Below are positions 1-64,000 of a stretch of 64,000 nt of DNA, piece after piece; within the stretch, counting starts at the first letter, position 1; every line of letters starts with the position of its first letter. The notes below the pieces were generated by a model. That model saw nothing but the letters and a program-made list of their open reading frames with translations. It was not told the DNA's origin and made no database searches. The stretch is from assembly GCA_963778155.1 (NCBI GenBank), contig CAVZTK010000021.1:392245-456244 (forward strand), read 5' to 3'. Made by a program: the position numbers and the translations under genes. This DNA is from an uncultured Chloroflexia bacterium (lineage in GTDB: Bacteria; Chloroflexota; Limnocylindria; Limnocylindrales; CSP1-4).

Positions 1-2
1 AC

Positions 3-209
3 CCGGATGCCGAGGGCGCCCAGCCGCCCGACCCCGACGATCAGAGCCCGTTCCTCTCGGGCACGCCCGAGGTGGTCGCCGCGGGCCTGCGGATGCACGC
101 TGAGGCCGGCGCGGACCACGTGATCGCGACCCTCACGCCAAGCACGCCCGAGACGGTCGCGTCGTTCGCCGAGGCGGTGACGCTGTTCCGCGCCACGCCG
201 GTCGCCTAG
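3..209 (+). CDS. 3' end of an LLM-class (luciferase-like) flavin-dependent oxidoreductase (partial; stop TAG at 207-209)
   Basis: Frame-3 translation ...FLSGTPEVVAAGLRMHAEAGADHVIATLTPSTPETVASFAEAVTLFRATPVA* matches the conserved C-terminus of F420/FMN-dependent LLM oxidoreductases. The gene starts upstream of the window. Confidence 0.5.
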   Translation, partial: PDAEGAQPPDPDDQSPFLSGTPEVVAAGLRMHAEAGADHVIATLTPSTPETVASFAEAVTLFRATPVA

Positions 210-245
210 GGGCCGGCGGGCGCGCGCACGCCGGCCGCCGAGCGC

Positions 246-1148
246 CTAGAGGTCGTCGATCCGCTGGATCGGCAGCCGCGGACCGTAGCTCGGCGGCCTG
301 ATCCCGCTCAGCTCGAGGAGGCGGACGACCCGCGCCCGCTGGCCCCGGTACGGCTCGAGCAGCTCGAGCATCCGGGCGTCCGTGCCGCGCGGCTCGCGGG
401 CGAGCGCATACACGACCAGGTTCGGGATGTGGAAGTCGCCGACGCTCACCGCGTCCTGGTCTCCGAGCGCACGGACGCCGACCTCGGCTGCGGTCCACGT
501 CCCGATCCCTGGCACGGCGATCAGCCGGGCGTACGCGTCCGCCAACGGGAGGTCGACGATCGCCTCGAACCAGGCGGCCCGCGCGGCGACGCGCCGGATG
601 AGATCCGCCCGGCGTTTCTCGACGCCGAACGGGTGGTACGTGTAGTAGGGGAGACGGCCCAGCACGGCCGGGTCCGGGGCGAGGCGCAGGCGCCACTCGG
701 GCGGGCCTGGAGCCGGCTCGCCGTATGACCGGATGAGGCCGAACCACGCGCGACGGGCTTCCTTGCCGATGACCTTCTGCTCGAGGATGGCCGGCAGAAG
801 CGAGTCGAGGACGGCGCCCGTCCGAGGGATGCGGATGCCCGGGTAGCGCCGCTCCAGCTCGCCGATGAGCGGGTGACCGGCCGGGATCGGTGCCGGGTCG
901 GCGCTCAGGCCGAGGAGGTCCGGCACGGCGTCGAGTGCGTCCTCGGCGCCCGGCCCCCACGCCTCCGCGTGGATCGTCCCGTCGCGGTGGGTGATCGCGA
1001 CGGTCGCCGGACCTGCCGGTGTCCGTATCGCACGCCAGGCACGGGCGCCCGACAGCCGGATCGTGGGATCGCCCGGCCCGCGGGACAGCGGCCCGAGCGT
1101 CCGTCGGAGGTCGAGCGGGCCGTTGGCGTCGAACGTGCGGCTTGGCAT
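246..1148 (-). CDS. HhH-GPD family DNA glycosylase (DNA-3-methyladenine glycosylase II / AlkA-like)
   Basis: ORF 246..1232 (-) contains an AlkA-type N-terminal domain plus the HhH-GPD core (..LIAVPGIGTWTAAEVGVRALGDQDAVSVGDFHIPNLVVYAL..). The likely start is the internal Met (MPSRTF..) near 1148; 1232 is the alternative. Confidence 0.75.
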   Translation of the reverse strand: MPSRTFDANGPLDLRRTLGPLSRGPGDPTIRLSGARAWRAIRTPAGPATVAITHRDGTIHAEAWGPGAEDALDAVPDLLGLSADPAPIPAGHPLIGELERRYPGIRIPRTGAVLDSLLPAILEQKVIGKEARRAWFGLIRSYGEPAPGPPEWRLRLAPDPAVLGRLPYYTYHPFGVEKRRADLIRRVAARAAWFEAIVDLPLADAYARLIAVPGIGTWTAAEVGVRALGDQDAVSVGDFHIPNLVVYALAREPRGTDARMLELLEPYRGQRARVVRLLELSGIRPPSYGPRLPIQRIDDL

Positions 1149-1262
1149 CGGCACCGATGCTAGGCCCCAAGCACCCGCTCCGCGCAACGGGCGGACGCCG
1201 GTCGTGGCGCGTCGGCGACACTGTGGCCACACGACAGGACGTCAAGCCCGGGAGGCCATCGG

Positions 1263-61844: not shown

Positions 61845-61882
61845 GGTCCACCTCGATCATGTCGCGATGATGCGACACGGAC

Positions 61883-62368
61883 TCACGATTCGAATTCGTC
61901 GCGGATCGTATCGTCGCCCTGGTCGAAGGTCGAGCCAAGTCCGACCTGACCACGCCAGAGCCCGGGTAGGCGTATCGGCGCATCACCGCCGGCATCGATC
62001 GTCAGGCCGCGCAGTCGAGCCGCGATGTCTGGCACGTCGCGCAAGGAGCCCTCGGCGATCGATGCGACCATGTCGAACGCCTCGTCCTCCGGCATGCGGA
62101 GGTATCGACCGTTCAGCCTGTAGAACAGGCGAACGCTCACCCAGCCGAGTCTCTTGTTGCCGTCGATCAGGGCGTGGCCGGTAACGACCGAGTGGAGGAG
62201 AGCCGCCGCCTTCGTGTCGAGGTCCGGATACGCCTCTGCGCCGAAGACCGTTGCTCGCGTGCGCGCGACGGCTCCCTCCAGGATCCCGATGTCGCGCACC
62301 TCGGGCGGTCTTCCGAGCGTGGCCTCGGCCGCACGGAGGAGGTCGTCGAGATCGAGATGTTCGGTCAC
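61883..62368 (-). CDS. doc: Fic/Doc-family toxin (death-on-curing, Doc)
   Basis: Fic motif HALIDGNKRLG in a 161-aa ORF. Its start overlaps the upstream small antitoxin-like ORF by 4 nt. Confidence 0.85.
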   Translation of the reverse strand: MTEHLDLDDLLRAAEATLGRPPEVRDIGILEGAVARTRATVFGAEAYPDLDTKAAALLHSVVTGHALIDGNKRLGWVSVRLFYRLNGRYLRMPEDEAFDMVASIAEGSLRDVPDIAARLRGLTIDAGGDAPIRLPGLWRGQVGLGSTFDQGDDTIRDEFES

Positions 62369-62565
62369 ATCTCCCCGAGCCGCCGAAGCAACTCGGCGTC
62401 TTCCTGGACGATCTCCGCCAGATAAGCGTCTCGCAGACGGATCCGACGCTTCACGTATTCGTCGATCGCGGTCCGGGCGACGTCCTGCATCGAACGCCGC
62501 TCGCGTCGCGCGGTCTCCCGCAGCGCCTCAGTCTCGGCAGCAGTCAGTCGGAGGGTCATTGGCAT
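62365..62565 (-). CDS. phd: Phd/ribbon-helix-helix-type antitoxin (66 aa)
   Basis: MPMTLRLTAAETEALRETARRERRSMQDVARTAIDEYVKR.. (RHH/CopG-like), immediately upstream of and overlapping doc. Confidence 0.7.
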   Translation of the reverse strand: MPMTLRLTAAETEALRETARRERRSMQDVARTAIDEYVKRRIRLRDAYLAEIVQEDAELLRRLGEM

Positions 62566-62680
62566 GGTTGGATGATACCGCTCGGTATCACAAGGTCAAG
62601 GCTGAACGTTTCGCCGATCCAATTCGACGGCCGAAGGCTCATCCGGTAGCATTGGAAAAACCCCCGGGAGGACCTGATCC

Positions 62681-64000
62681 ATGGCGAAGTATGTCTTTGT
62701 GACCGGAGGCGTGACCTCCTCTCTGGGCAAGGGCATCACTGCCGCCAGCATCGGTCGGCTGCTCAAGGCACGCGGCCTGCGGGTCTCCATCCTCAAGCTC
62801 GATCCGTACATCAACGTGGATCCGGGCACGATGAGCCCGTACCAGCACGGCGAGGTCTTCGTCACCGACGACGGCGCCGAGACCGACCTCGATCTCGGTC
62901 ACTACGAGCGGTTCATCGACGAGAACCTGAGCCAGCTGAGCAACGTGACGACCGGCCGCATCTACCAGGCGGTCATCGCCAAGGAGCGCCGCGGCGACTA
63001 CCTCGGCGGCACGGTCCAGGTCATCCCGCACATCACCAACGAGATCAAGGAGCGGATCGGGCGCGTCGCGCGCGACGGCGACCCGGATGTCGTCATCGTC
63101 GAGGTCGGCGGAACCGTCGGCGACATCGAATCGCTGCCGTTCCTCGAGGCCATCCGGCAGATGCGCAAGGACGTGGGGCGGGCGAACGTGCTGTACGTCC
63201 ACGTCACGCTGCTCCCCGCGCTGGCCGCGACGGGCGAGCTCAAGACGAAGCCCACCCAGCACTCGGTCAAGGAGCTGCGCGGCATCGGCATCCAGCCGGA
63301 CGTCATCGTCCTGCGCTCCGACCACCCGGTCCCCGACGAGATCCGCGAGAAGATCGCGCTGTTCACGGACGTCGCGACGGAGGCGGTCATCCCGGCCGAG
63401 ACCGCCGACACGATCTACGAGGTCCCGCTGATGTTCGAGGCCTCGGGCCTCGGCAAGCTGGTCGTTCGCGAGCTCGGTCTCGGCGACCCGGACGTCGAGC
63501 CGGACCTCGACTCGTGGCGCGCCCTGGTCGAGCGGATCAAGGCGCCCAAGCCGGTCCTCGAGATCGCCCTCGTCGGCAAGTACATCGAGCTGCCCGACGC
63601 CTACCTGTCGGTCACCGAGGCGCTGCGCCACGCGGCATGGGCGCACGAGGTCGACGCCAAGGTCCGCTGGGTCGATTCCGAGGCGCTGACCCACGACAAC
63701 CTGCACGAGCGGCTCGAGGGCGTCGCCGGGATCCTCGTCCCGGGCGGCTTCGGCCATCGCGGCATCGAGGGCAAGGTCCTCGCCGCCCACTTCGCCCGCG
63801 AACACCGCATCCCGTACCTCGGCCTGTGCCTCGGGCTGCAGTGCGCCGTCATCGAGTTCGCGCGCGAGGTCGTCGGCACCGGCGACGCGAACTCGACCGA
63901 GTTCGACATGTTCACCGACCACCCGGTCATCGACTTCATGCCCGACCAGCGCGACATGGAGGACAAGGGCGGCACGATGCGGCTCGGGCTGTACCCGGCC
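62681..64000 (+). CDS. pyrG: CTP synthase (5' partial; continues beyond the window)
   Basis: GGGAGG-N9-ATG; [80 protein letters not shown]... and later the glutaminase domain (..[10 protein letters not shown]..). It is absent from the ORF track because no stop occurs inside the window. Confidence 0.9.

Follow-up and report, generated by a model that had tools for sequence, protein, structure and literature searches.

The window, that is, the whole stretch of 64,000 nucleotides analyzed here, has a G+C content of 72%. Its proteins are encoded on one contig of 1,436,730 bp, recorded at both NCBI and ENA, which belongs to the MAG of an uncultured soil bacterium of the Chloroflexota ('Limnocylindrales'-like) with high GC. 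It carries, among others, genes of central metabolism, a transporter of the SulP family, a formate dehydrogenase and a selenocysteine (Sec) pathway. Small indels number about 58 across the 64 kb, or 0.9 per kb. At least 45 of these break the reading frame, and at least 17 genes are affected. The preliminary description of this DNA had reported at least about 30 changes at about 0.5 per kb; these are present, and their number was understated. The genes tkt, pgi, gnd, the MFS transporters, FdsA-N, FIST and fdhD were confirmed as intact.

The window was compared with two sets of relatives. L001 to L009 are GTDB genome records, and six of the nine, including L003 and L004, are titled MFD bins. L010 to L013 are ENA assemblies whose contigs are named in the same way, and L013 is the L004 contig. 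Nucleotide identity to the window is 88% for L003 and 95.3-95.5% for L010 and L011. This series was produced from Nanopore reads only, by Flye --meta assembly and one round of Medaka (PMC12313526). Presumably, the window was made with that pipeline too (Nanopore-only, Flye plus Medaka).

In the Cupin_5-like gene (2600..3041, minus strand), TT has become TTT by a surplus T at 2645-2647, 12 codons upstream of the stop codon. In tblastn, the L013 cupin matched the window over residues 1-132 only, and the true C-terminus, ending in FAGFELAAPDWEPPIA and a stop codon, lies in the next frame. In the adenylate/guanylate cyclase gene (8197..8979, plus strand), a +1 insertion (G) at 8719 is private to the window as compared with L013 and L012, and the Guanylate_cyc Pfam profile runs consecutively over the two fragments (3-88 and 99-179). 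Similarly, the NuoF-like gene (10121..11328, minus strand) has a window-private +1 at 11138, which splits the Complex1_51K profile into 1-25 and 29-149. The SulP transporter gene (13280..15012, plus strand) has +1 insertions at 13857 and about 14604, and in tblastn the match to a single L013 SulP protein moves from frame 2 of the window to frame 3 and then to frame 1. The adjoining DUF2252 gene (15009..16317, plus strand) has a +1 at 15297 (TGT[C]GCG), as seen in the alignment with L012 and in the split Pfam profile (1-44 and 46-385). A second +1 near 15062-15115 is probable from weak sequence support, local identity at 15062 being low. In the gene for a UbiB-family kinase (21928..24170, minus strand; dN/dS 0.08), a +1 (C) was found at 23327, and the 747-aa UbiB ORF of L003 matched the window in two frames with 96% identity.

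The most heavily interrupted gene is fdhA (19337..21300, minus strand), which encodes the Sec-containing catalytic subunit of formate dehydrogenase (Mo-pterin part) and is the only selenoprotein gene in the window. It has about 15 indels, comprising insertions at 19933, 19947, 20057, 20162, 20278, 20318, 20442, 20463, 20548, 20720, 20792 and 20849, a deletion at 19568 and a -1 at 21156. The Sec TGA codon at 20998 is kept. After correction of the indels, FdhA was 93% identical to the L003 orthologue over 747 codons without stops, and it gave full Molybdopterin and Molydop_binding Pfam profiles. We considered whether FdsA-N (9052-10120) is truncated and fdhA rearranged. This was rejected, since L013 and L003 have the identical split architecture, which is therefore natural.

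In the Sec system, fdhA, selA, selB and selD are all interrupted. selD (24197..25260, minus strand; dN/dS 0.11) has a +1 (T) at 24721, supported by six relatives. selA (25395..26777, plus strand; dN/dS 0.14) has a net +1 (+7 nt as compared with four relatives) at about 25540 and a +1 (C) at 25989. selB (26799..28674, plus strand) has a +1 (C) at 27113. The L003 selB has a separate frameshift of its own, at window position 27953. The tRNA-Sec gene selC (25283..25379, plus strand) is intact according to ARAGORN and Rfam (RF01852, 65.5 bits). The idea that the insertion at 25389 hits this tRNA was rejected by the same two analyses, which place the insertion 10 nt downstream of it.

In the sbcD-like nuclease gene (34268..35462, plus strand; dN/dS 0.16), +1 insertions were found at 34701, 34900 and 35330, and the 444-aa SbcD ORF of L003 matched the window in four successive frames. 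The sbcC-like ATPase gene (35463..37739, plus strand; dN/dS 0.18) has +1 insertions at 35917, 35976, 36739 and 37012; the extra base at 37012 is absent in L011 as well. The DUF2231-Rieske gene (39170..39993, minus strand) has +2 insertions at 39816 and 39612 and +1 insertions at 39573, 39549, 39530 and 39507. All six are private to the window in a three-way alignment, and one continuous gene is called in L010. In the citrate synthase gene (42778..43956, minus strand), a +1 (C) at 43260 falls within the G-T-M-K-G-P-L-H-G-G motif and is private as compared with L010 and L011; the fragments continue one protein. The alpha/beta hydrolase gene (44290..45115, minus strand) has a +1 at about 44889, a site where L011 too carries an additional base; in L010 the gene is intact (270 aa). 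In zwf (glucose-6-phosphate dehydrogenase; 47751..49492, minus strand), the +1 (G) at 48936 is private to the window, and L010 possesses an intact 577-aa gene. Further +1 insertions lie in non-coding or uncertain DNA within 12012..57330, at 12012, 12141, 18052, 18065, 19321, 21343, 25389, 30276, 33921, 34054, 34184, 41732, 44233, 52265 and 57330.

These frame changes were detected in several ways. A frame HMM based on GC3 and stop codons, run on the window alone, detected same-strand frame switches at 8718, 11138, 13858, 14603, 15115/15297, 23330, 24723, 26006, 27115, 34708-37008, 39814, 43254, 44921 and 48935. As an independent check, the syntenic relatives have a single continuous ORF at the sites where the window changes frame. 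In L003, for example, UbiB, SelD, SbcD, SbcC and FdhA are continuous where they are broken in the window. Chaining of tblastn HSPs from the ORFs of all relatives gave much noise, since at 72% G+C even ORFs in the wrong frame remain open, and it was used as support only. The preliminary description was right that frame changes interrupt conserved genes, since all the junctions listed there were recovered by the frame HMM, the relatives and the Pfam profiles. Its statement that each protein is continued in the frame downstream of the junction was borne out by the continuous ORFs in relatives and the consecutive profiles, as was its report that zwf and citrate synthase are hit. All genes on its list were found to be affected. 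However, the list overlooked the approximately 15 indels in fdhA (19.3-21.2 kb), and of the DUF2231 gene it gave the junction but overlooked about 6 indels at 39.5-39.8 kb.

The comparison with orthologs proposed there showed that the frameshifts of the window are absent from relatives at 88-95% nucleotide identity. They are private to the contig, the relatives each carrying another set. L010 and L011 lack the insertions of the window in zwf and citrate synthase, and the sibling assemblies show insertions of the same kind elsewhere, at up to 2 per kb. L011 has 32 private +1 insertions within 16 kb, and L012 has 14 private insertions as compared with 2 deletions. The gene calls of the siblings are also fragmented, but in genes other than those of the window. 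An OpcA homology search gave nothing closer than 97%. When metagenome contigs were scanned for the citrate synthase junction with 0 or 1 base allowed, 63 chance matches in unrelated genes were obtained, and none had GPLHGG.

When the indels were removed, dN/dS was 0.08-0.2, as in intact control genes, and no in-frame stops appeared. Genes carrying between 4 and 15 frameshifts were no exception to the low dN/dS, and they also had no nonsense codons. Purifying selection on the genes is thus normal once the indels are stripped.

The spectrum of the indels is highly one-sided. In coding DNA, about 43 insertions and 2 deletions were counted, and about 95% of the events are +1 insertions. As compared with L003, 32 insertions and 8 apparent deletions were found; several of the 8 are errors of L003 itself or intergenic. 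The preliminary description had placed the changes mostly in G/C or homopolymer runs. This did not hold, because 26 of the 32 window insertions (approximately 80%) extend no homopolymer (random expectation 48%; p = 2.5e-4), and 25 of the 31 insertions in L011 extend no run. Homopolymer cases are thus below random expectation, the reverse of classical Nanopore homopolymer indels. The G+C-rich context at every junction is due to the 72% G+C of the window DNA. The extra bases are mostly G or C. Each of the 13 extra Cs stands after a G, and 7 of the 8 extra Gs stand after a C (p = 3e-8). Furthermore, the events are strongly clustered (variance/mean 4.0 in 2-kb bins; p = 3e-13), with clusters in fdhA, sbcCD and DUF2231-Rieske. 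An early impression of GATC enrichment did not survive a 4-mer test around the 45 window sites, in which no 4-mer was significant after 96 tests (best z = 2.6).

The insertions are related to codon structure. Their slots fall between codon positions 1 and 2 in 6 cases, between 2 and 3 in 17, and between 3 and 1 of the next codon in 29 (chi-square p = 5e-4). Of 44 extra bases, 39 are synonymous alternative alleles, where 66% would be expected (p = 0.001). A null model matched for the flanking trinucleotides was rejected too (P = 2e-4 and 1.5e-4); for the window events alone, the significance is only moderate (P = 0.03 and 0.007). In addition, 10 of 40 private insertions adjoin a site of disagreement between the other two assemblies, as compared with 8-9% in the background (p = 0.002), and in 10 of the 10 informative cases the focal assembly has both alleles side by side. 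These ten cases all come from L010 or L011, no window site being informative. Insertion sites also recur between assemblies beyond chance (P = 2e-4): 55125 and 42944 are shared by L010 and L011, and 44889 by the window and L011. All three involve synonymous third-position alleles as read from the alignments. Some junctions, among them 46409 and 55230, resemble a switch between two known haplotypes. The codon-phase and synonymy bias, together with the doubled alleles in the siblings, suggest that SNPs between strains were written as insertions.

We conclude, with a probability of roughly 0.9, that the frameshifts are consensus errors of long-read metagenome assembly and not mutations of the organism. 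The private sites, the intact underlying genes and the insertion spectrum support the earlier view that they reflect uncorrected assembly error and not biology. The artefact part of that view stands; the errors are not mainly of a homopolymer or slippage type, and they do not resemble random noise. As in Nanopore-only or unpolished assemblies judged by IDEEL-type tests, single-base indels split conserved genes, are private and leave the gene intact underneath. Classical Nanopore assembly indels are mostly deletions, and classical Nanopore errors lie in homopolymers. Unlike these, the indels described here are about 95% insertions, about 80% outside homopolymers, and track synonymous codon positions.

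Random read-level indel noise from low coverage, unrelated to strain polymorphism, would be the classical form of such an error. The pipeline of the relatives is Nanopore-only, and its authors report errors in low-coverage MAGs (PMC12313526); R10.4 assemblies need about 40x coverage for a near-absence of indels. Local coverage dips could produce the clustering, and some events, such as that in the cupin gene, are homopolymer extensions. However, classical Nanopore consensus errors concentrate in homopolymers, whereas 81% of the insertions here lie outside them, and the dependence on codon phase and synonymy persists with the local context matched. Random noise would be expected neither to reproduce the allele of a sibling assembly in 10 of 10 cases nor to strike identical sites in separate assemblies. 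We regard such noise as an unlikely source of the pattern. The recurrence of 55125, 42944 and 44889 in different assemblies, and the GC/CG dinucleotide regularity of the extra bases, might instead point to a systematic basecalling or polishing error at a sequence or DNA-methylation motif. This is an improbable explanation, since no 4-mer is enriched at the 45 window sites in the 96 tests, the context-matched null is rejected, and shared polymorphisms account for the recurrent sites equally well.

Biological explanations are less probable still. That all four Sec-pathway genes, together with the only selenoprotein gene of the window, are interrupted would fit a recent massive pseudogenisation, by decay of the Sec trait or general genome erosion. 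In Mycobacterium leprae-type decay, likewise, many conserved genes are interrupted, including metabolic ones. Unlike such decay, the window shows neither nonsense codons nor raised dN/dS (0.08-0.2), its indels are not biased towards deletions, and relatives do not share them. The genuine decay of genes in bacteria favours deletions, and a spectrum with about 95% +1 insertions is the opposite of what decay would leave. Moreover, citrate synthase and zwf of central metabolism are also hit, the events occur in one assembly only, siblings having others, and real frameshifts would show no preference for synonymous third-position slots. Both tRNA-Sec and the TGA codon for Sec are undamaged. Massive pseudogenisation is thus very improbable, and we give equally little credence to a narrower form, in which the Sec system (fdhA, selD, selA and selB) decays by insertion-biased mutation and part of its lesions are real. 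Read-through by the cell, whether through programmed ribosomal frameshifting, transcriptional slippage or phase variation, would agree with the continuation of the same protein in the downstream frame, and with nothing further. The window junctions have no slippery heptamer, long homopolymer or SSR, the sites are not conserved in orthologues, up to 15 occur in one gene, and unrelated gene families are affected. The probability of this last explanation is negligible.

Within the assembly-error reading, the doubling of SNP alleles is probably the main source of the errors. Flye collapses co-occurring strains into consensus contigs (PMC8302730). Co-assembled strains would differ by a SNP, mostly at synonymous third-codon positions, and the consensus or polishing step would emit both alleles next to each other, so that a substitution becomes a +1 insertion. 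For each site of the window, the reads would then contain a second allele. Doubling of this kind would account for the near absence of homopolymer extensions, the G and C extra bases, the GC/CG dinucleotides and the local clusters. As would be expected from strain collapse, the extra base in the sibling assemblies is the allele of another lineage (10 of 10). The papers on strain collapse describe lower identity, and they give indels as a primary cause of frameshifts where coverage and polishing are reduced. They do not describe a +1 artefact by allele doubling, the link being drawn here, and in the literature we found no description of SNP alleles doubled into +1 insertions. Some events fall outside the doubling model, namely homopolymer extensions such as the TT to TTT change in the cupin gene, insertions between codon positions 1 and 2 (15297, for example), both fdhA deletions and the pair of +2 insertions. 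This minority may be ordinary read-level errors. In Nanopore-only MAGs made by Flye plus Medaka from strain-rich, high-GC populations, we tend to think that SNPs are systematically converted to +1 insertions.

Pseudogene, gene-loss and split-gene calls from the contig of the window are thus not to be trusted, and the sibling contigs examined, several of them GTDB genome records, call for equal caution. The truncated products are carried over into completeness estimates, pangenome analyses and protein databases, and protein fragments of the window are already present in a protein collection. If the conversion of SNPs to insertions is true, the errors could be predicted, as +1 insertions outside homopolymers that adjoin third codon positions, and they could be repaired by haplotype-aware polishing, not by more coverage alone. 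Furthermore, the frameshift positions in public MAGs would then mark polymorphisms of the population. In the organism itself, the genes for zwf, citrate synthase, UbiB, sbcCD and SulP are most likely intact and the Sec/formate dehydrogenase system complete, and the biological significance of the broken genes is ordinary.

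Same-strand frame switches were recovered at the coordinates of the preliminary description by a frame model based on GC3 and stop codons in the window alone, and the translated fragments ran on into one another, as had been claimed. With UbiB, SelD, SelA, SelB, SbcD, SbcC and SulP, a single ORF of one relative aligned across two to four consecutive frames of the window. Consecutive Pfam coordinates were found across the fragments of DUF2252, Complex1_51K and Guanylate_cyc, the frame changes of selA fell at ~25540 and 25989, and deletion of one T restored the C-terminus of the cupin. 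The observation is thus confirmed, but the original count of at least about 30 (about 0.5 per kb) was too low: we listed 58 small indels (0.9 per kb), at least 45 of them frame-breaking, in at least 17 genes. Those beyond the earlier tally included ~15 indels in fdhA (19.3-21.2 kb), the gene for the selenocysteine (Sec)-containing catalytic subunit of formate dehydrogenase, and six in the DUF2231-Rieske gene.

The indels were strongly clustered (variance/mean 4.0 in 2-kb bins, p = 3e-13). Clusters fell at 19.3-21.2 kb (15 events), 34.7-37.0 kb (7) and 39.5-39.8 kb (6). Candidate causes are local coverage, local strain diversity, or reads of related species that cross-map to conserved genes; dS of fdhA was 0.16, the lowest among the genes tested. 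No frame junctions were found in 57.7-64 kb; the pyrG gene there is intact, as is a Phd/Doc-like pair. The latter, a Phd/RHH-like antitoxin and a Doc (death-on-curing) toxin at 61900-62600 on the minus strand, was scored as non-coding by the frame model because its GC3 is below that of the surrounding genes.

The G+C content of the window is 72%, and the MAGs closest to it belong to uncultured Chloroflexota ('Candidatus Limnocylindrales'-like). By exact protein match, OpcA, Gnd, FIST, FdhD and saccharopine dehydrogenase of the window were placed together on a single 1,436,730-bp contig present in NCBI and ENA. Contigs of relatives served for comparison. L003 (contig CAWCQK010000016.1, bin MFD04967.bin.2.110) is syntenic with 17.4-37.9 kb at 88.3% nucleotide identity. 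L010 (ENA ERZ25039543, contig_38568) and L011 (ERZ25039457, contig_75044) match 41.7-57.7 kb at 95.3-95.5%, and L012 and L013 cover 1-17 kb at ~82-83%. Compared with L003, the window lacks ~336 nt at 21890-21903, between UbiB and an Imm5-like gene, and ~690 nt at 33455-33492; each may be a real structural difference or an assembly gap. The MFD catalogue of long-read MAGs uses Nanopore data only: Flye (--meta --nano-hq) was the assembler, and one Medaka round followed, without short-read polishing. Its authors noted Nanopore-associated errors in lower-coverage MAGs (PMC12313526).

Comparison with orthologues had been proposed as a check. Where the window genes break, the genes of the relatives run continuous, and the fragmented gene calls of the relatives fall in different genes. 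In a three-way alignment, the insertions of the window in zwf at 48936 and in citrate synthase at 43260 were missing from both L010 and L011. L011 carried 32 private +1 insertions in 16 kb (L011 1-16000, ~2 per kb), L010 nine small private indels, and L012 14 private insertions and 2 deletions in ~12 kb (L012 8450-21161). A frameshift was present in selB of L003 at ~10833 (window 27953); the window is intact there. L003 is part of a GTDB species-representative MAG, and the public contigs L011 and L012 bear an error load above that of the window. The split tkt, zwf and citrate synthase of the sibling contigs, and a fused 649-aa 'OpcA', are part of a public protein collection.

After L003-guided removal of the indels, dN/dS against L003 (Nei-Gojobori) was 0.205 for fdhA, 0.082 for UbiB, 0.114 for SelD, 0.136 for SelA, 0.156 for SbcD and 0.178 for SbcC, and the intact genes used as controls gave 0.04-0.15. 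No in-frame stops were found in the corrected genes compared with L003. The corrected FdhA was 93% identical to that of L003 over 747 codons, with complete Molybdopterin and Molydop_binding profiles, and retained the TGA selenocysteine codon at 20998 within a 14-letter motif (not shown). It would not be credible for one gene to have taken fifteen independent real indels yet neither nonsense nor excess non-synonymous change.

The fdhA gene (19337-21300, minus strand) opens a compact selenocysteine locus at 19337-28674, followed by the Imm5-like gene (21366-21881, plus strand), UbiB, selD (minus strand), tRNA-Sec (25283-25379, plus strand; intact, Rfam 65.5 bits), selA and selB. The Sec-containing Mo-pterin catalytic part of the formate dehydrogenase starts at a 12-letter sequence (not shown) and forms a separate gene, 10 kb from NuoE-like and NuoF-like genes that are encoded together with a stand-alone 355-aa NuoG/FdsA-N-like Fe-S protein (9052-12000, minus strand). 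This protein stops just past the Mo-pterin 4Fe-4S motif (14 letters, not shown). The same split was seen in the relatives: L013 has a stand-alone 348-aa gene, and the catalytic gene of L003 has the same start. The split of the formate dehydrogenase appears to be natural.

In coding DNA, ~43 insertions stood against 2 deletions. Gene decay in bacteria is deletion-biased, and the spectrum is therefore wrong for decay. Genuine pseudogenisation is very unlikely given this insertion-dominated spectrum, the lack of in-frame stops and the low dN/dS; programmed frameshifting and phase variation each failed their defining test. In contrast, the interpretation of the preliminary description, assembly error, was supported by the private events, the intact underlying genes and the excess of insertions. 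We put the probability that the frameshifts of the window are artefact, not biology, at about 0.9. Frameshifted gene calls are a familiar problem of long-read assemblies without short-read polishing (PMC9262707), and the window resembles these in having genes split by small indels.

The insertions were mostly not of the classical homopolymer type. Compared with L003, 26 of 32 insertions extended no run, the random expectation being 48% (p = 2.5e-4), and the private insertions of L011 were alike (25/31 outside homopolymers, 29/31 G or C). Textbook long-read errors are homopolymer-associated, unlike most insertions of the window, and textbook indel errors are mostly deletions. An inserted C followed G in 13/13 cases against L003 and an inserted G followed C in 7/8 (p = 3e-8); no 4-mer motif was enriched around 45 insertion sites of the window. 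This pattern of G/C insertions outside homopolymers led us to test whether the extra base could represent the other allele of a SNP.

Among 52 coding insertions of the window and L011, 6 lay between codon positions 1 and 2, 17 between 2 and 3, and 29 between 3 and 1 (chi-square p = 5e-4). For the 44 that adjoin a third position without merely repeating its base, swapping the inserted base into that position was synonymous in 39 (66% expected, p = 0.001). Under a matched null, with the flanking trinucleotide of each event fixed and codon phase free, slot 1|2 was expected 16.7 ± 3.1 times (6 observed, P = 2e-4) and synonymous cases 27.5 ± 3.3 times (39 observed, P = 1.5e-4); the 28 events of the window on their own gave P = 0.03 for slot and P = 0.007 for synonymy. 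Of 40 private insertions in the three-way alignment, 10 adjoined a site where the other two assemblies differ (background 8-9%, p = 0.002). In all ten, the assembly with the insertion had the two alleles next to each other, as in CCGC-G-CG in the window, CCGC-T-CG in L010 and CCGC-TG-CG in L011, and all were in sibling contigs, none in the window. Insertion sites also recurred, far above chance (P = 2e-4), across contigs that were assembled independently: an extra C at 55125 and 42944, common to L010 and L011, breaks their tkt and citrate synthase, and an extra base at ~44889 in the alpha/beta hydrolase is common to the window and L011. All three involve synonymous third-position alleles. Flye is known to merge related strains into a single consensus (PMC8302730).

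From the codon-slot bias, synonymy, doubled alleles, recurrent sites and strain collapse, we infer that strain SNPs are the likely main source of the +1 insertions. Strain-level SNPs, concentrated at synonymous sites by purifying selection, would be rendered as +1 insertions when both alleles are emitted side by side. On these sequence patterns we lean towards such doubling as the main error source, which would extend to the window from the sibling contigs where doubled alleles were seen directly. Ordinary read-level errors probably account for a minority of the events, namely those that extend a homopolymer, those in slot 1|2 (e.g. 15297), the two fdhA deletions and the two +2 events. A limited literature search found no published description of a SNP-to-insertion signature. 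The idea is a modest methodological lead, and the frameshifts are a practical warning for users of this contig or its sibling MAGs.
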